Origin: a virus
Taxonomy: Duplodnaviria > Heunggongvirae > Uroviricota > Caudoviricetes
DNA length: 5,564 bases
Direction: 5' to 3' (one strand)
Virus record (IMG/VR): IMGVR_UViG_2681813234_000001
Span: 1 to 5,564 of that record
How positions within the stretch are numbered: the stretch's first letter is position 1; every line of letters begins with the position of its first letter. The translations under genes were made by a program, and so were the position numbers. Positions 149-5,404 of the stretch are shown in pieces. The notes under the pieces are model-generated. The model searched no databases. It was not told the origin of the DNA and saw nothing but the letters and a program-made list of their open reading frames with translations.

Positions 149-340
149 TCATTCACCACTTTCTTCCAATAATTGCTCGTAATATGCGACGTACTCATTA
201 GCAAGATAGTACAGGCGCTCAGCAGACTTGCGTTCTGCATTGCTTAAGTCACCAATAGACTCAATGTTGCCAATTGCATCAACACAATCGTTGAAGTCTT
301 GCTCCGTGTTACGGAATCTACAGTAGGACATGTTTGCCAT
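149..340 (-). CDS. hypothetical small acidic protein (63 aa)
   Basis: ORF-track ORF; ATG at 340-338 with a strong GAGGAG RBS 5 nt upstream on the minus strand; 2-nt gap to the upstream stop (345-343). 13 acidic vs 5 basic residues. No family recognised. Confidence 0.5.
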   Translation of the reverse strand: MANMSYCRFRNTEQDFNDCVDAIGNIESIGDLSNAERKSAERLYYLANEYVAYYEQLLEESGE

Positions 341-342
341 GA

Positions 343-603
343 TTACTCCTCACCACCCTGAAAAATGCCACCAAACTCTTCAACTAGTTCATCAATGCAT
401 TCGTCCGCCTCAGCGCAATTACCAGCAGCACTCAGCAGAATATCAACAGCCTCATCGTCAGGAATGTTGATTGCCGAGAAGAACTCAACAATGCACATTT
501 TCACAACCTGATATTCACCTTCTGTCTGGCAAGAAGCAAAACTGCAAGCGACTGCATCAATCAGCTTGGCTTTGTCATCACTTGGGTTATCAATATCAAA
601 CAT
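343..603 (-). CDS. hypothetical highly acidic cysteine-containing protein (86 aa from ATG 603; track ORF starts at TTG 633)
   Basis: The track ORF 343..633 starts at TTG. The in-frame ATG at 603-601 has an AAGGTG RBS with ~6-nt spacing and lies after the upstream gene's stop (620-618). Product MFDIDNPSDDK...EEFGGIFQGGEE has 21 D/E vs 3 K, no R/H, and 5 Cys. No family recognised. Confidence 0.5.
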   Translation of the reverse strand: MFDIDNPSDDKAKLIDAVACSFASCQTEGEYQVVKMCIVEFFSAINIPDDEAVDILLSAAGNCAEADECIDELVEEFGGIFQGGEE

Positions 604-617
604 TTCCATCACCTTTG

Positions 618-1088
618 TTAGTAAAAAAACCAATTTTCTGTTTCTTGGTTGTGTCCAAAGTTATATTCAATATCTGGCGTTGATGTATCAATATTCTTCA
701 TCCCATCAACAATGGTTGATACAACAGCCAAATCTTGTTTGATTCTCATTAAATGGTATTTCTTCCGGCGCAATAAACTTTCAATGGCAAGTTTCTTCGT
801 TGGAAATGCAAAAGATCTTTCTGCATTTTTTGCTACCTTCTTGATTGCATATCTGTTTATCTTTTTCTTCCATTCCTGTAACCACTGATTTGGTGCTGGT
901 TTTAAATCAACAACCCAATGCGCAGGAACCAACCATGCATAATGCTCTGTCTGATGAAAAGCTATATATTGAAGTGCGAATATTTTGATTCCATCTTCTT
1001 CAACTGTCGCTTGGAATCTCCAGAAAACAGGCATTCCATCATGTTCAGATTCTGATTCGGGGAATGGTACTAACCATGATTTATTCAT
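618..1088 (-). CDS. hypothetical protein (156 aa from ATG 1088; track ORF starts at ATG 1106)
   Basis: Track ORF 618..1106. The second in-frame ATG at 1088-1086 is preceded by GAGGTAA with good spacing, whereas ATG 1106 has no RBS and would sit ~16 nt from the predicted TSS. First gene of the leftward operon. Product MNKSWLVPFPESESEHDGMPVFWRF...ETENWFFY; no family recognised. Confidence 0.55.
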   Translation of the reverse strand: MNKSWLVPFPESESEHDGMPVFWRFQATVEEDGIKIFALQYIAFHQTEHYAWLVPAHWVVDLKPAPNQWLQEWKKKINRYAIKKVAKNAERSFAFPTKKLAIESLLRRKKYHLMRIKQDLAVVSTIVDGMKNIDTSTPDIEYNFGHNQETENWFFY

Positions 1089-1129
1089 CTTTATTACCTC
1101 TAACATTTATTGTTGTTTCTACGTCACTA

Positions 1130-1158
1130 ACTATAAACGCACCATCAATCTACGTCAA
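1130..1158 (-). promoter_or_regulatory. sigma70-like promoter for the leftward operon (TTGACG-17-TATAGT on the minus strand)
   Basis: Minus strand reads cctgTTGACGtagattgatggtgcgttTATAGTtagtg: -35 TTGACG (plus 1153-1158), 17-nt spacer, -10 TATAGT (plus 1130-1135). Predicted TSS near 1122, about 34 nt upstream of ATG 1088. Confidence 0.45.
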
Positions 1159-1166
1159 CAGGAATA

Positions 1167-1175
1167 TGCTAAAAT
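1167..1175 (+). promoter_or_regulatory. candidate extended -10 promoter (TGcTAAAAT) for the rightward block
   Basis: TGcTAAAAT at 1167-1175 with no good -35. It sits about 30 nt upstream of the AGGGGA RBS and ATG 1206, divergent from and overlapping the leftward promoter. Confidence 0.3.
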
Positions 1176-1205
1176 CATGCTAATCAAACAACAGGGGATT
1201 TAAAC

Positions 1206-1325
1206 ATGGGTTCCACCAATTCGCCTTCTCGTTCACGCGCTACTGGCAACACCAAAACTGGCGGCAAAACTGGCGCGGTGAAGCCAAACGGCTCCACCCG
1301 TTCACCATCGCGCGGTAAGAAATAA
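1206..1325 (+). CDS. hypothetical 39-aa basic low-complexity peptide
   Basis: ATG 1206 preceded by AGGGGA about 7 nt upstream. Translation MGSTNSPSRSRATGNTKTGGKTGAVKPNGSTRSPSRGKK, stop TAA 1323-1325 overlapping the next ATG (TAATG). Codon choices (ggc, cgt, cgc, acc) look coding. Below the ORF-track size cutoff. Confidence 0.4.
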   Translation: MGSTNSPSRSRATGNTKTGGKTGAVKPNGSTRSPSRGKK

Positions 1326-1765
1326 TGTTCGGTGCAGACGTTGCCATCATGATCATGTATGTGTTGGGTTTTGCCTGTACGGGCATGGTCGCGTTTCTGG
1401 TGTTCATTCCGGCAATGGTGATGTCTGTGTATCTTGGATGGGTGCTTGTTGATTCATTTCCCGCCGAATATCTGTATTACCTTGCGCAGTCTATGGTCTG
1501 GTTGTTTCCTGCCATTGCACTGCGCAAAAGTACAAAGATGGCGCTCTGCGTGCTGACTATGAGCCTTTACGAATGGCTGGTTGCGATAGAGTCATTCGTA
1601 TGGGAATTTATCACGCCTGTAGAAACGCCGCTTCATGCGCAGTACGCATTTATTATTATCGGCATCCATCTGTTCATCCTTTCCATCACTTTTAAATGGG
1701 GCGGCGAAATTGGACATTATTCTTGGCGTGGTCGCCATCGTTTTTTCGCTGATTCAAATCTATAA
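1325..1765 (+). CDS. hypothetical integral membrane protein (146 aa, about 4 predicted TM segments)
   Basis: Track ORF with ATG 1325 overlapping the upstream stop. Four hydrophobic stretches (VAIMIMYVLGFACTGMVAFLVFIPAMVMSVYLGWVLV, YLAQSMVWLFPAIAL, MALCVLTMSLYEWLVAI, YAFIIIGIHLFILSITF). The 3' end overlaps an alternative open frame (1635..1862), so the true C-terminus is uncertain. Confidence 0.45.
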   Translation: MFGADVAIMIMYVLGFACTGMVAFLVFIPAMVMSVYLGWVLVDSFPAEYLYYLAQSMVWLFPAIALRKSTKMALCVLTMSLYEWLVAIESFVWEFITPVETPLHAQYAFIIIGIHLFILSITFKWGGEIGHYSWRGRHRFFADSNL

Positions 1766-1797
1766 GTGCTGGAAACATATCATCAGCGAGACACGCA

Positions 1798-2082
1798 ATG
1801 AACGGAGCACTAAGACAAGTCGCAGAGCAGATTATAAGCGGAACGACAGGACAGGTGATTGATAAGGCTGGATATGCTTCTATTGGAACCGGCATCGGCC
1901 TGAAAGTTGCAGAGCAAACACCTGTCACGCAATCTTATTTTGAGGCTATGATTCCACACAGCCTGACAGAGTGGGCGGCAGTAGCGTCAATCCTCGGCGC
2001 TCTGTCTCTGGTAATAAAGAATCTGTTTGAAATGTGGTGGAAAGTTAGGGAGTCGAAGAAAAATGGCAGCACCAACACCTGA
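1798..2082 (+). CDS. putative holin-like small membrane protein (phage 21 S / pinholin-like architecture)
   Basis: Track ORF, 94 aa. A weakly hydrophobic G/A-rich TMD1 (AGYASIGTGIGLKVA), a second TMD (EWAAVASILGALSLVIKNLFEMWW) and a charged C-tail (KVRESKKNGSTNT) resemble phage 21 S as I recall it. An alternative GTG start at 1855 (AGGA 4 nt upstream) would give a shorter form. Stop TGA 2080-2082 overlaps the next gene. Confidence 0.45.
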   Translation: MNGALRQVAEQIISGTTGQVIDKAGYASIGTGIGLKVAEQTPVTQSYFEAMIPHSLTEWAAVASILGALSLVIKNLFEMWWKVRESKKNGSTNT

Positions 2083-2455
2083 AGAATTAGTAAGCCAGAT
2101 GGCATCCCGTGGAATGACTATCACCACAACGGATGCGTCCGGTATTCTGTGCCTTGTGACAGCAATCAGTGAATGCCTTGAACTGAACTATCCAAACGAT
2201 GAATGCCGACAAAATGCGATCATGCTGTGGGCTTCCATCCTGATTAGCGCAAATACCTCAGGTCGCTACGTTACCAGTCAGAGTGCACCATCTGGGGCAT
2301 CGCAATCGTTCGCGTATGGCAGTAAGCCGTGGGTGGCGCTGTACAATCAGATGAAACTACTGGATACAGCCGGATGCACTGGGGATTTGGTGGAAGACCC
2401 TGACGGAAGCGGTAAGCCGTGGTTTGCGGTTGTGCGTGGGAGTAAATGTAAATGA
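2063..2455 (+). CDS. putative head-tail adaptor / connector-like protein (130 aa)
   Basis: Track ORF 2027..2455 starts at TTG. The in-frame ATG 2063 has a GGGAG RBS about 11 nt upstream. N-terminus MAAPTPEELVSQM...DASGILCLVTAISECLE resembles gp6-like adaptors, and it is the first of four coupled genes ahead of the major tail gene. The assignment rests on synteny and a weak motif. Confidence 0.45.
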   Translation: MAAPTPEELVSQMASRGMTITTTDASGILCLVTAISECLELNYPNDECRQNAIMLWASILISANTSGRYVTSQSAPSGASQSFAYGSKPWVALYNQMKLLDTAGCTGDLVEDPDGSGKPWFAVVRGSKCK

Positions 2456-2793
2456 CTTCGCTGGCTCGGTTTTCCTATACGCAACCATGCACCATCTGGC
2501 ACAAAAGCGGCACCGACAAGTACGGCAAGCCGACTTTTGACGCGCCAGTGAGCATCATGTGCGATCATGGCTTTAACGATGATGTATCGACTGATGCGAA
2601 AGGTAATGAGATTGTACAGAAGAACACTTTCTGGACAGAATACACTGGCGCTAATGTTGGTGATTACATCATGATTGGCACGGTAACAGAAGCTGACCCG
2701 CTGGCAGCTGGCGCAAATCAGATTCTGAATGTGATTAATTATGGCAACACCTTCAATCGCGCTGAACCGCCTGACTTTGCACTGGTGACATAA
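2452..2793 (+). CDS. putative head-closure / head-tail joining protein (113 aa)
   Basis: ATG 2452 overlaps the upstream stop (ATGA), with GGGAG 9 nt upstream. Size and position between an adaptor-like and a gp10-like gene fit a head-closure protein. Product MTSLARFSYTQPCTIWHKSG... Confidence 0.45.
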   Translation: MTSLARFSYTQPCTIWHKSGTDKYGKPTFDAPVSIMCDHGFNDDVSTDAKGNEIVQKNTFWTEYTGANVGDYIMIGTVTEADPLAAGANQILNVINYGNTFNRAEPPDFALVT

Positions 2794-3191
2794 TGCCAGC
2801 GAAATTAAGAGGTGTCCGGCAGGCTGTAGAGAGAACTTCGCAAATTGTGGATGAGATAATCGCCACGAAAGCTGTGCGTGCAATCAAGTCAGCGACATAC
2901 ATCATCCGCACCGAATCAGCCACGCTAACGCCAATTGATACATCAACGCTGATTAACAGCCAGTTTGATACCGTGGAAGTTAACGGAACGCGAATCACTG
3001 GCAAGGTTGGCTACTCTGCGAAATATGCGCTGTATGTCCACAACGCCAGTGGGAAACTTACAGGCAAACCACGCAGCAACGGTAATGGTACGTACTGGTC
3101 GCCGGGTGGTGAACCGCAATTTTTGACCAAGGGAGCACGACGCACAAAAGACCTTGTTGATGGCGCGATTAAGAAGGAGATGACACTCTAA
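2793..3191 (+). CDS. HK97 gp10-like tail-completion / neck protein (132 aa)
   Basis: ATG 2793 overlaps the upstream stop (TAATG). The pattern ...TLTPIDTSTLINSQ...GKVGYSAKYALYVHNASGK...PQFLTKG matches my memory of the HK97 gp10 family consensus (D-T-G-x-L ... YAxYVE-like ... FL-KG). Confidence 0.55.
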   Translation: MPAKLRGVRQAVERTSQIVDEIIATKAVRAIKSATYIIRTESATLTPIDTSTLINSQFDTVEVNGTRITGKVGYSAKYALYVHNASGKLTGKPRSNGNGTYWSPGGEPQFLTKGARRTKDLVDGAIKKEMTL

Positions 3192-3565
3192 TGAATATGC
3201 TTGAGCTGGTTGATGCATATCTTCAGGATGCCGGATTGTATGATGGCTGGACTTCGCAGTTGCAGTTCTGGAATGATACCGGAGATGGTAACGAGCAATT
3301 TATTGTCCTGCAATCAAACGGCGGCACACAGGTGATGGATGGCCTCGGCGGTGATTTCTATTTCTCGCTGTACGTTGTTGGAAAACAAGGCCAGTACAAT
3401 GTTGCTGATGTTGATGCGAAAGCCAATGAGATTATCGAATACATCAAGACGCACCCGATTGATTCATGCGTTAACTACATCCAGTTGCAGGCTCCGCTCG
3501 GTCGGCCGATGTTGACGGAAGAAAAAAGACCAGTGCATGAGCTTCTATTGCGGGTTGTGAAATAA
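3191..3565 (+). CDS. putative tail terminator protein (gpU-like position, 124 aa)
   Basis: ATG 3191 overlaps the upstream stop (TAATG). It is the last gene before the terminator and the major tail gene; size and position fit a tail terminator. The call is mainly by synteny. Confidence 0.4.
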   Translation: MNMLELVDAYLQDAGLYDGWTSQLQFWNDTGDGNEQFIVLQSNGGTQVMDGLGGDFYFSLYVVGKQGQYNVADVDAKANEIIEYIKTHPIDSCVNYIQLQAPLGRPMLTEEKRPVHELLLRVVK

Positions 3566-3567
3566 AT

Positions 3568-3594
3568 AAAGCCGCATGAAGCGGCTTTTAATTT
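3568..3594. terminator. bidirectional rho-independent terminator
   Basis: aaaGCCGCatgaaGCGGCttt hairpin (stem 3568-3575 / 3581-3588) followed by TTTTAATTT on the plus strand and by TTTATTTATT on the minus strand. It ends both the rightward neck operon and the antisense tRNA. Confidence 0.65.
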
Positions 3595-3670
3595 GGTGGA
3601 CACGGACGGATTTGAACCTTCAATCAGCCGATTATGAGTCGGTTGCTTTAACCAATTAAGCTACGCGTCC
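3594..3670 (-). tRNA. tRNA with anticodon CAU (elongator Met or lysidine-modified Ile2 type), CCA encoded
   Basis: Minus-strand read GGACGCG-TA-GCTT-AATTGGTTA-AAGC-A-ACCGA-CTCATAA-TCGGC-TGATT-GAAGG-TTCAAAT-CCGTC-CGTGTCC-A-CCA. Acceptor stem 7 bp (one G-U), perfect D stem, anticodon loop CUCAUAA with U33 and A37, T-loop TTCAAAT. Caveats: one A-G mismatch in the T stem and an A-C at the first anticodon-stem pair. G1-C72 is paired, so it is not an initiator. Confidence 0.6.
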
Positions 3671-3704
3671 ATAAGTGCTGGTTTAAGCATTGCCAGCGTG
3701 CTTT

Positions 3705-3770
3705 CTTAATATCCAGCCCCGTAACCCATACATACCCCTACATATGATTGCGATAATGCTGGATATTAAG
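3705..3770. repeat. perfect 13-bp inverted repeat (cttaatatccagc / gctggatattaag) around a 40-nt loop
   Basis: Arms at 3705-3717 and 3758-3770 are exact reverse complements. A 13-bp inverted repeat within 100 bp is unlikely by chance in 5.5 kb (rough expectation about 0.01). Confidence 0.55.
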
Positions 3771-4045
3771 TGCTGTGGTGGCCGGTGCTGATCTCCGGCT
3801 TAGGTGCGAAACGGCACGGGTTTACGTACTGGATTCGCCGCATTTTTATAGCGCATCAGCCTGCGCATTCACCACAACGGAAAGAGCACTGCGCGGCACC
3901 TTTCACCAAATCCGCGAGGTCTACGTGTTCAATGCTCTTACCTGTTGCGTGCCGGTTACGCGTCCGGCGTCTTTCGACCGCTAATTGTAATTGAAGGATT
4001 GGATGTAATTAAATGAAATCATGGAACCAATCTCTGTTAAATCCT

Positions 4046-4074
4046 AATCTACACCACAAAATAATCACTGTCAA
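4046..4074 (-). promoter_or_regulatory. sigma70-like promoter, leftward (TTGACA-17-TAGATT), candidate promoter of the tRNA transcript
   Basis: Minus strand reads caggtgTTGACAgtgattattttgtggtgTAGATTagg: -35 at plus 4069-4074, -10 at plus 4046-4051. Near-identical architecture recurs at 5440-5468. Confidence 0.45.
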
Positions 4075-4080
4075 CACCTG

Positions 4081-4089
4081 TGATATAAT
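4081..4089 (+). promoter_or_regulatory. extended -10 promoter (TGaTATAAT) upstream of the major tail gene
   Basis: TGATATAAT at 4081-4089, about 27 nt upstream of the GGAG RBS (4116-4119) and ATG 4126. The same gatataatca motif recurs at 5481-5490. Confidence 0.4.
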
Positions 4090-4125
4090 CACCACGTTAG
4101 CAGCTAACACAATTCGGAGATCGAA

Positions 4126-4842
4126 ATGGCTATTTGTGCAAATGATAAAGGCGTTCTGGTCGGTCGCATGACCCGACTATTCCTTGCTGAAGGGTGCGGC
4201 GACGCAGTCCCGGAAGCAGGAGACTGGAAGTATTTGGGGTCAACCACCAGTAAAGGCGTTGACTACTCGCCGCAGACCACCACGTCGGAAGCTGATACCG
4301 CTGGCGGCTTTGTTTCCACTCTCGTTACCAGCTCTGATATGACCATCAGCGCAGAGGTTGAAATCCGCAAGAATGACCCGAGCGATGAGTTTGGTTTCCA
4401 TCGTCTTGTTGAGATTTACGCCACTGAACTGAAAGCGCGTCGCCAGCCTTCCTTGTGGGTGCGTGAGGTAACTGGTGCAACTATCGTTACCGCGTACTGC
4501 AACATCACTAGTATCAGCTACGAAGGTGGCACGAACGACATCGTTACTGGTAGCCTTGAGTTCAAGGTTTACGATTCTGACAGCGTTACCGTCGAAAGCC
4601 TTGAGCCTCTGGCATTCACTACCGACCTGCAATCAACTGGCAGCACTGGCAGCCCGTTAACTGTTGCTGTTGAAGGTGGCGTTGCTCCTTACACTTATGT
4701 ATGGCGCAAAGATGGTGTGGTTGTAGGCAGCGAATCTGGAGCAACACTGGCAAGCCCAACCGCTGGCGTGTATACCGTCACGGTAACTGATTCGTCTACT
4801 GACCCTGAAGTTATCCTGAGCACGGCTTGCACCGTATCCTGA
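4126..4842 (+). CDS. major tail (tube) protein with C-terminal Ig-like domain (238 aa)
   Basis: Track ORF; ATG 4126 with GGAG 6 nt upstream. Lies just downstream of the neck/terminator genes. C-terminal ~80 aa (LAFTTDLQSTGSTGSPLTVAVEGGVAPYTYVWRKDGVVVGSESGATLASPTAGVYTVTVTDSS) is an Ig-like (Big_2/PKD-like) beta-sandwich pattern typical of siphovirus major tail proteins such as lambda gpV. Confidence 0.6.
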   Translation: MAICANDKGVLVGRMTRLFLAEGCGDAVPEAGDWKYLGSTTSKGVDYSPQTTTSEADTAGGFVSTLVTSSDMTISAEVEIRKNDPSDEFGFHRLVEIYATELKARRQPSLWVREVTGATIVTAYCNITSISYEGGTNDIVTGSLEFKVYDSDSVTVESLEPLAFTTDLQSTGSTGSPLTVAVEGGVAPYTYVWRKDGVVVGSESGATLASPTAGVYTVTVTDSSTDPEVILSTACTVS

Positions 4843-4849
4843 CAAAGAA

Positions 4850-4877
4850 AAAGCCCCGAAAGGGGCTTTGTTTTATT
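4850..4877. terminator. bidirectional rho-independent terminator
   Basis: aaAGCCCCgaaaGGGGCTtt hairpin (GAAA tetraloop 4858-4861) followed by GTTTTATT on plus and TTTTTCTTT on minus. It ends the major tail gene and the leftward cassette, whose stop is at 4875-4873. Confidence 0.7.
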
Positions 4878-5073
4878 CTTGTGGTGGCTCTGGTGATTTA
4901 GCCCAATGGGTGGCTGGAATGCCGTGACAGCGGTCCAATTCACTAACAAACATCTTGCTGCCAATACTATCTACAGCTTTACATACCGCAGTTCTAACAA
5001 CACCGCGAAATGCTGTAAGAACCATCGCTCCTTCTTCCGGCATCTGATCACTACACTTAATCCACTGGATCAT
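4873..5073 (-). CDS. DUF551-like phage protein (66 aa)
   Basis: Track ORF; ATG 5073-5071 overlaps the upstream stop (ATGA). MIQWIKCSDQMPEEG...VLTAF...THWAKSPEPP matches the DUF551 signature as I recall it (WI-x-D-x-LPE-x-G ... HW ... PEPP). Confidence 0.65.
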   Translation of the reverse strand: MIQWIKCSDQMPEEGAMVLTAFRGVVRTAVCKAVDSIGSKMFVSELDRCHGIPATHWAKSPEPPQE

Positions 5074-5213
5074 ATCACCTTATCCTCATCAAAAATCACA
5101 CCAATCACACGAAGCAAGTCTTTCGCCATACGCTCTGCTTCTTCATAGTCGTAACCAGCATCAACATACAATTCAGTGTAGAAAATCAGGTCAGCTTTTG
5201 TTTGTTCGTTCAT
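5070..5213 (-). CDS. hypothetical 47-aa acidic protein
   Basis: ATG 5213-5211 overlaps the stop of the upstream Imm-like gene (ATGA), and its own stop TGA 5072-5070 overlaps the DUF551 ATG (ATGA). Translation MNEQTKADLIFYTELYVDAGYDYEEAERMAKDLLRVIGVIFDEDKVI (12 acidic, 5 basic). Below the ORF-track size cutoff; supported mainly by this double coupling. Confidence 0.45.
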   Translation of the reverse strand: MNEQTKADLIFYTELYVDAGYDYEEAERMAKDLLRVIGVIFDEDKVI

Positions 5214-5404
5214 TTCTTGTCGCCACTTTTAACCAGTGCCCAAACCAGTGCCGCAACCCACCCAATAAAGCTCCATCCGACAAGAATATTCAGTACGCAG
5301 ATTGCAGTCGTGTTTACGTGCTTGCGTTGCAGCGCCACAAAAGATGGAAGAAGATAAGCAAATATCACCAATCCAGCGAAAAGCAACAAAATAACAACAT
5401 CCAT
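5210..5404 (-). CDS. superinfection immunity (T4 Imm-like) family small membrane protein (64 aa)
   Basis: Track ORF; ATG 5404-5402 with GAGGTGA RBS 5 nt upstream. Two TM segments and the motif AYLLPSFVALQRKHVNTTAICVLNILVGWSFIGWVAALVWAL, which matches the superinfection-immunity small-protein family consensus as I recall it (YFLPSIIA-x-R-x-H-x-N ... LGW-x-IGW ... ALIWA). Confidence 0.7.
   Translation of the reverse strand: MDVVILLLFAGLVIFAYLLPSFVALQRKHVNTTAICVLNILVGWSFIGWVAALVWALVKSGDKK

Follow-up and report, generated by a model that had tools for sequence, protein, structure and literature searches.

The window analysed here is a stretch of phage DNA of 5,564 nucleotides (nt) (Caudoviricetes; IMG/VR record IMGVR_UViG_2681813234_000001), and the element in question is a cluster of three small rightward genes, p39, p146 and p94, which directly precede the head-tail joining (neck) genes. 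The closest matches of the window by megablast are small siphophages of the Skatevirus type, namely SeSz-2, Bas77, Skate, seszw, Sf11 and Vi II-E1, whose named hosts are Salmonella, E. coli and Shigella; the best matches listed have 88-93% identity across 81-88% of the 5.5-kb window. An initial annotation made from the sequence had described the locus as a membrane-protein cluster with a pinholin-like gene and no endolysin, and had offered either a split lysis system or a membrane function unrelated to lysis. The gene cluster it observed was correctly described, and a module that recurs in other phages makes it a modestly interesting lead. The three genes are not the lysis cassette of the phage, as seen in its relatives, and p94 with its polytopic partner behaves as a portable two-gene membrane module, for which an accessory role in lysis is tentatively proposed below.

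Three small genes ahead of the neck block

p39, p146 and p94 are real, conserved genes under purifying selection, which is practically certain because low substitution ratios, full-length family matches and a shared gene order agree. The non-synonymous/synonymous quotient of substitution rates (dN/dS) against relatives is 0.05-0.10 for p39, 0.06-0.14 for p146 and 0.03-0.07 for p94, which is also where the adjoining neck genes fall. Each protein is a full-length member of a PHROG family, with end-to-end matches at 7e-27 (p39), 3e-97 (p146) and 2e-60 (p94), and the order p39-p146-p94 is kept in the metagenomic relatives L008 and L009 at just 46-59% protein identity. The labels of these PHROGs ('membrane protein/moron', 'lipoprotein') are annotation carry-over. 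The GC content of the trio (0.45-0.51) is like that of the structural genes and unlike that of the AT-rich accessory genes to the left.

Table 1. Features of the window, with positions counted from its first nucleotide
Feature	Position	Strand	Remarks
Leftward accessory genes	149-1106	-	
162-amino-acid (aa) protein	618-1106	-	phrog_1636 (function-less PHROG label); adjoins the divergent promoter region
Divergent intergenic region	1107-1205		Separates the accessory genes on the left from the rightward neck/tail block
p39	1206-1325	+	39 aa; phrog_34767
p146	1325-1765	+	146 aa; phrog_14688
p94	1798-2082	+	94 aa; phrog_13738
DUF7370 protein, head-tail adaptor-like	2063-2455	+	PF24085 (9e-36); phrog_786
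Rest of the neck module	2452-3565	+	113-aa protein (phrog_797); 132-aa Neck1/HK97-gp10-like protein; 124-aa tail terminator
Bidirectional terminator-like hairpin	3568-3588		Ends the rightward neck block
tRNA-Met (CAT)	3594-3670	-	Between the tail terminator and major tail protein genes
Major tail protein	4126-4842		Rightward block
Three more leftward accessory genes	After the major tail protein	-	One is Imm-like
Imm-like protein	5210-5404	-	64 aa, two transmembrane domains; phrog_1039 'immunity to superinfection'; pfam14373 annotation in Sf11

The first gene does encode the basic peptide that had been described. With an isoelectric point (pI) of 12.0, p39 has nine K/R and no D/E, is rich in Ser, Thr, Gly and Pro, and lacks a transmembrane domain (TMD) or any hydrophobic stretch. 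A chance open reading frame (ORF) is ruled out by its dN/dS (12.8 synonymous against 2.2 non-synonymous differences from Bas77) and by the conservation of its length of 39 aa and its position in L008 and L009, at 59% identity. It is missing from Roufvirus ZX4. The motif GSTNSPSR stands at both ends of p39 (MGSTNSPSR ... KPNGSTRSPSRGKK; window 1206-1325), and the C-terminus of p94, KKNGSTNT (window 2056-2079), resembles it. The p39 of L008 and L009 (L008 5401-5520) reads MGSTNSPGRK...PNGSTNSPGRG, and a 62-aa ORF preceding the p146 homologue of L030 (640-828) ends in ...SSTGSPGRG. The motif common to the p39 ends, the p94 end and the L030 ORF can be written NGST(N)SP(S/G)R.

The ATG of p146 overlaps the TAA of p39 by 1 nt. 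The protein is strongly hydrophobic, and the earlier count of roughly four membrane-spanning helices was borne out: TMHMM predicts four in the 97%-identical orthologue of Vi II-E1, and an AlphaFold2 model is all-helical (predicted local distance difference test, pLDDT, 75). When this model was searched with Foldseek, BFVD returned only uncharacterised phage membrane proteins and PDB nothing at E<5. The motifs YEWLVAxESFxWQFxxPVET and KWGGEIG are conserved. The label 'lipoprotein' attached to p146 was traced to a PROSITE PS00013 lipobox match in Vi II-E1 and is rejected, as homologues of this four-helix membrane protein have V, I or F in place of Cys18. A weak terminator-like hairpin (5 bp, 4 of them GC) followed by a T-run lies on the plus strand at 1724-1737, about 30 nt before the p146 stop; it may limit read-through to p94 and the genes of the neck, unless it is due to chance.

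The cluster had been said to run without a break into the adaptor-like gene. This applies to its downstream end, where the DUF7370 start sits 20 nt inside p94, an overlap that suggests translational coupling; upstream, 32 nt (1766-1797) separate p146 from p94. Overlaps of 20-23 nt between p94 homologues and DUF7370 were also found in L006, L021, L008, L028, L030 and ZX4.

The third protein, p94, consists of an N-terminal helix, an invariant, Gly-rich and weakly hydrophobic segment (GQVIDKAGYxSIGTG), a TMD at about residues 59-81 in which IKN is conserved, and a tail that is basic (KVRESKKNGSTNT). It occurs in 205 phage records, and the Sf11 protein is 98.9% identical to that of the window. In its small size, its TMD and its charged C-terminus (+2) p94 is built like a holin, as are 23 diverse members of its family. 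An AlphaFold2 model based on a 23-sequence alignment (mean pLDDT 64) is confident only for the helix 55-92 and, because this is the TMD helix alone, was not used for a fold search.

The pinholin architecture first ascribed to p94 holds in part. Like S21, the pinholin of phage 21, p94 is a small protein in which a weakly hydrophobic first helix rich in Gly, Ala, Ser and Thr is followed by one strong TMD. In both, the strong TMD starts with (S/T)(Q/E)WAA and the basic tail contains K(I/V)RE..(K/R)K, and the hydropathy profiles are nearly identical, the Gly-rich segment of p94 matching the signal-arrest-release (SAR) helix of S21 (KD17 0.58 vs 0.49). Unlike S21, however, p94 has a charged N-terminal extension of 23 residues, and its putative first TMD comprises only 12 uncharged residues, bounded by D22/K23 and K36; some distant family members have a longer uncharged segment. 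A search of holin-family hidden Markov models (HMMs) did find similarity, all of it sub-threshold: p94 scores 13.5 bits (E 0.07) against PF04971 (P21 holin S), whose cut-off is 26, and among the 23 members five match PF04971 (best E 1e-3), two PF16080 and two PF10746, all three being holin families labelled type II in Pfam. The p94 family aligned by hhalign to an S21 alignment, whose query sequence was confirmed by a 100%-identical PF04971 database match, with 45% probability over 38 columns covering only the second TMD and the tail. Given the low bit score, the hhalign probability, the short uncharged segment and the N-terminal extension, membership of p94 in the pinholin family is not established, and the 'holin' labels that a few records give it are unsupported. 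Neither p39, p146 and p94 nor the partner proteins of L007, L011 and L027 described below have a curated match in Pfam, NCBIfam or PADLOC.

Lysis genes, deletion mutants and virions of the relatives

No endolysin or spanin is present among the ORFs of the window in Pfam and PHROG searches, as had been stated. In relatives whose DNA is 82-93% identical, a complete lysis cassette lies about 11 kb from the cluster, and p94 adjoins an endolysin neither there nor in the window. The Bas77 cassette, which lies upstream, comprises a 92-aa lysozyme remnant, a 154-aa endolysin (phrog_90; lambda-R-like by sequence reading), a holin of 79 aa with two TMDs (DUF7940/phrog_13249) and an Rz-like spanin (DUF2514). 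In ZX4, a Klebsiella relative at greater distance, the endolysin is soluble and of the T4-lysozyme type, and it is accompanied by a holin of the same family and a spanin. Neither the Bas77 nor the ZX4 endolysin has a SAR domain or a hydrophobic N-terminus, and since these N-termini are hydrophilic the relatives offer no SAR endolysin for a pinholin to serve. In Bas77 (8200-8932) the 92-aa remnant is of the T4 lysozyme type (PF00959) and lies directly 5' of the lambda-R-like endolysin, and ZX4 has an intact T4-type enzyme at the equivalent place (5829-6266), as if one endolysin had replaced another and left a relic behind.

Mutant genomes show which parts of the cluster can be lost. In seszw, a CRISPR-based iterative genome reduction gave viable plaque isolates with public mutant genomes (PMC9825161). 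The wild-type p39-p146-p94 region matches 151 phage records; in 53 of them under 80% of it is covered, and each of these that was sampled is a seszw mutant with a gap of about 433 bp equal to p146. Around 50 viable isolates have a clean deletion or a disruption of this gene: exactly p146 is lost in 290L, a 100-bp disruption lies within it in 2t2, and it is lost along with the last 18 nt of p39 in 250S. In 180S, an in-frame p39(1-28)::p94(29-94) fusion removes p94 residues 1-28, including the invariant GQVIDKAGY motif, so that the p39 C-terminus is deleted in both 250S and 180S, which are viable. The p94 TMD is kept in all of the approximately 70 seszw-derived genomes. A comparison of 180S (767-1609) with wild-type seszw (4318-5162) also revealed a 2-nt length difference in the DUF7370 region and an annotated gene 22 cut to 78 aa; either the adaptor-like gene of this viable mutant, which forms small plaques, is frameshifted, or the sequencing was at fault.

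The trio is very probably not the lysis system of the phage, because a complete cassette lies elsewhere in the relatives and the phage survives the deletion of two or more of the three genes. Very probably it is also not required for plaque formation, as the mutants demonstrate for p146, the p39 C-terminus and p94 residues 1-28. The proteins are probably non-structural as well. For Sf11, the mass spectrometry (MS) list of purified virions (Table 1) has gp77 and gp78, whose genes come straight after DUF7370, and does not have gp74 (p146), gp75 (p94) or gp76; the list, obtained from a gel band, also lacks DUF7370 and the tail terminator (PMC12724387).

The p94 family and the genes around the cluster

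The p94 family is small. A profile search recovered only 26 clusters at 50% identity among 1.84 billion representatives, which share the motifs (I/V)DKxG(Y/F)xS(I/V)GxGxG and (T/P)(E/D)WAxxxSIxGxxxxxIKNxxE and a basic tail. Two scans of genome contigs returned no prophage copies. The p94 homologues occur in several genomic contexts. In the first, they lie directly 5' of DUF7370, usually with the overlap of 20-23 nt (L005, L006, L021, L028/29, L030, L008/9 and ZX4). In the second, they belong to a co-oriented run and lie 4-6 genes downstream of an endolysin, which in L007 is a Peptidase_M15_4 accompanied by a GTA_holin_3TM/phrog_3427 holin and in L025/L026 an Amidase_2; a 152-aa ORF of L025 is not similar to the L007 holin, so that lysis genes were identified in L025 by the endolysin only. 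In the third, which is a lambdoid region, they follow NinG and precede the small terminase subunit (L010, L011 and L018/19). Two further copies, in L020 and L027, form islands amid oppositely oriented genes.

In most contexts, a polytopic membrane protein of 130-165 aa is encoded immediately 5' of the p94 homologue. These partners fall into three groups, one containing p146 (L008/9, L021, L030 and L022), one in L010/L011/L019 and one in L007/L025/L027. By hhalign, one pair of groups is collinear over 113 aligned columns, which is most of both proteins, with a common (E/D)xF...PxET (P 0.002), and another pair gave P 0.012. Since mutual homology is not demonstrable, the groups are described as sharing an architecture of size and topology only. 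Because the pair recurs before DUF7370, after lysis genes, in lambdoid regions and as islands, the polytopic protein and the p94-family protein behave as a portable two-gene membrane module. The association of p94 with DUF7370 marks a single large lineage of structural modules (DUF6260 capsid, DUF7370, tail terminator 3). In the group of the window and outside it p94 is universal, and its synteny with DUF7370 is kept down to about 30% identity. The distribution of p39 and p146 is patchier: 103 phage records contain p146 and 205 contain p94, and both p39 and p146 are absent from Roufvirus.

The flanks of the cluster are variable. The 162-aa gene to the left is missing at the same position in Bas77 and several other relatives. 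Within the divergent intergenic region, a promoter scan found a sigma-70-like site on the minus strand (1158-1130; 10/12) that would serve the leftward genes, and called no plus-strand promoter; a candidate extended -10 (TGcTAAAAT) near 1164-1172 on the plus strand was spotted by eye only. The ASO78B annotation of the same intergenic region likewise has a minus-strand promoter only. To the right, the spot of the tRNA-Met is taken in relatives by other tRNAs (Ser, Arg, Ile) or by homing-type genes (AP2, HNH), and it appears to be a variable insertion hotspot. The following stretch of about 455 nt (3671-4125), 5' of the major tail protein gene, matches nothing in Rfam and lacks a convincing ORF, and contains a promoter-like site on the minus strand (4074-4046). 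Other ORFs of the window encode an anti-restriction protein, a DUF551-like protein, unknowns and the Imm-like superinfection immunity protein, the last being an exclusion candidate separate from the cluster.

A possible role of the module in lysis timing

Taken together, the trio would open the rightward neck/tail operon of a virulent siphophage of the Skatevirus type, as neither its lysis cassette nor part of its virion. The four-helix p146 and p94, a bitopic holin-like protein with a presumably cytoplasmic basic tail, would be one instance of the portable module, apparently fixed in this lineage before the DUF7370 adaptor-like gene, whose translation may be coupled to p94; p39 would be a lineage-specific basic peptide coupled to p146. 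If expressed late with the neck genes, p146 and p94 would enter the inner membrane of the host at a late stage of infection. They might then act as an accessory holin/antiholin-like pair that tunes permeabilisation or the lysis timing set by the canonical holin, and would themselves release no endolysin. This lysis-modulating role is a tentative proposal, somewhat short of even odds, and it is favoured because p94 is built like a holin, because its similarities, weak as they are, point to class II holins only, because two contexts of the pair are lysis-adjacent, and because the trio is coupled to late genes, being co-oriented with late structural genes and overlapping DUF7370.

Phage P2 offers a parallel. 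Its lysis genes lie between head-completion and tail genes, with Y as the holin and LysA as a four-TMD putative antiholin, so that the premise of the initial annotation that holins do not normally sit ahead of neck genes was too strong. As in P2, where a holin of about 93 aa and a four-TMD accessory protein of about 141 aa are set among head-completion and tail genes of the late operon, p94 and p146 combine a holin-type protein with a non-essential four-TMD protein that would affect lysis timing only. By sequence and by profile, p94 and p146 resemble neither Y nor LysA, having no Pfam or NCBIfam matches, and the endolysin, which in P2 is K and lies between the two genes, is here about 11 kb off.

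Several observations weigh against this proposal. TMHMM, applied to the Vi II-E1 orthologue of p94, predicts residues 59-81 as the sole TMD, one rather than two. The similarity limited to class II holins is weak, and compositional bias in a TMD and tail can mimic homology. The cassette that the pair would modulate is about 11 kb from the cluster in this lineage, and it was read in the relatives, the window covering 5.5 kb of its own genome. The p94 homologues of Roufvirus ZX4, L005 and L028 have no polytopic partner; phmmer found no homology between the partner groups; and the islands, p94 alone in L020 and the pair in L027, look moron-like. The retention of the p94 TMD in the seszw mutants says nothing about essentiality, because a deletion would also take the DUF7370 start, and absence from the Sf11 virion list carries little weight, since this list is without DUF7370 and the tail terminator too.

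The strongest competitor, although itself rather unlikely, is superinfection exclusion or another moron-like role at the host membrane, in which p146 and p94 would block incoming phage DNA or alter a host membrane process and take no part in lysis. A non-lysis function, the second option of the initial annotation, is compatible with the data; HMM searches assigned the proteins to no non-lysis family, and the only similarities, weak ones, are to class II holins. In keeping with exclusion, these are genes dispensable for plaque formation that encode small inner-membrane proteins without family assignment; the islands and the patchiness of p39 and p146 agree with it, and phrog_13738 is filed under 'moron/host takeover', albeit as a label only. 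The small exclusion proteins of the inner membrane, such as Imm and Sp of T4, are likewise small and dispensable. However, p94 and p146 have no homology to Imm or Sp and no similarity to known exclusion families in Pfam (including PF14373, Imm) or PADLOC, and the phage already has its Imm-like gene as a separate ORF. Unlike typical exclusion morons, p94 is universal in its group and syntenic with DUF7370. The trio has the composition of structural genes, is co-oriented and coupled with the neck genes, and has no own promoter or terminator detected apart from the weak hairpin at 1724-1737. The imm and sp genes of T4 are expressed early, and late co-expression with neck genes fits exclusion by a virulent phage poorly.

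An assembly or virion role, in which p94 and maybe p39 would be packaged or act at the neck, say as a pilot or ejection protein or by anchoring head-tail joining to the membrane, is improbable. The overlap and adjacency with DUF7370, kept across lineages at about 30-40% identity, the p94 TMD present in every seszw derivative and the extreme basicity of p39, as a DNA-associated peptide could have, would suit it. Against this, p94 is not in the Sf11 virion list whereas two downstream neck proteins are, its family lies far from structural genes in L007, L020, L025 and L027, the p39 C-terminus, p146 and the p94 N-terminus are dispensable, and a four-helix hydrophobic protein is an unlikely capsid passenger. 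The injection-related function once suggested for these membrane proteins found no support, neither p94 nor p146 being among the virion proteins of Sf11.

Least probable is a split lysis system, in which p94 as a true pinholin, with p146 as its antiholin, would depolarise the membrane to activate a SAR endolysin encoded elsewhere: the weak P21-holin and hhalign matches over the second TMD and tail and the S21-like hydropathy of the Gly-rich helix speak for it, but p94 stays below the PF04971 cut-off with a short, charge-flanked first segment whose invariant motif is dispensable in 180S, and the relatives' soluble lambda-R-like or T4-lysozyme-like endolysins adjoin a two-TMD holin and a spanin of their own. 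The initial annotation had itself named an ordinary complete cassette elsewhere as evidence against this option, to which the deletability of p146 is added.

As it stands, the cluster, which has already been annotated as hypothetical in more than 200 genomes, is an ordinary-looking accessory gene set. In these more than 200 phage genomes the label 'lipoprotein' for p146 and the sporadic label 'holin' for p94 are unsupported, and 'membrane protein' fits. Such phages are under development for the biocontrol of Salmonella, E. coli and Klebsiella, and p146 is known to be removable. If the p146/p94 pair modulates lysis, it would add a holin-like family missed by current HMM libraries and an example of lysis control whose genes lie apart from the cassette, with coupling to a neck gene. 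There is only a slim chance that p94 and its partner form a new holin-like family outside the curated ones, controlling the state of the membrane or the timing of lysis without dependence on the canonical cassette; if they do, the coupling to the head-tail adaptor in Skatevirus-like phages could make the lysis clock follow the supply of neck proteins, and hence virion completion.

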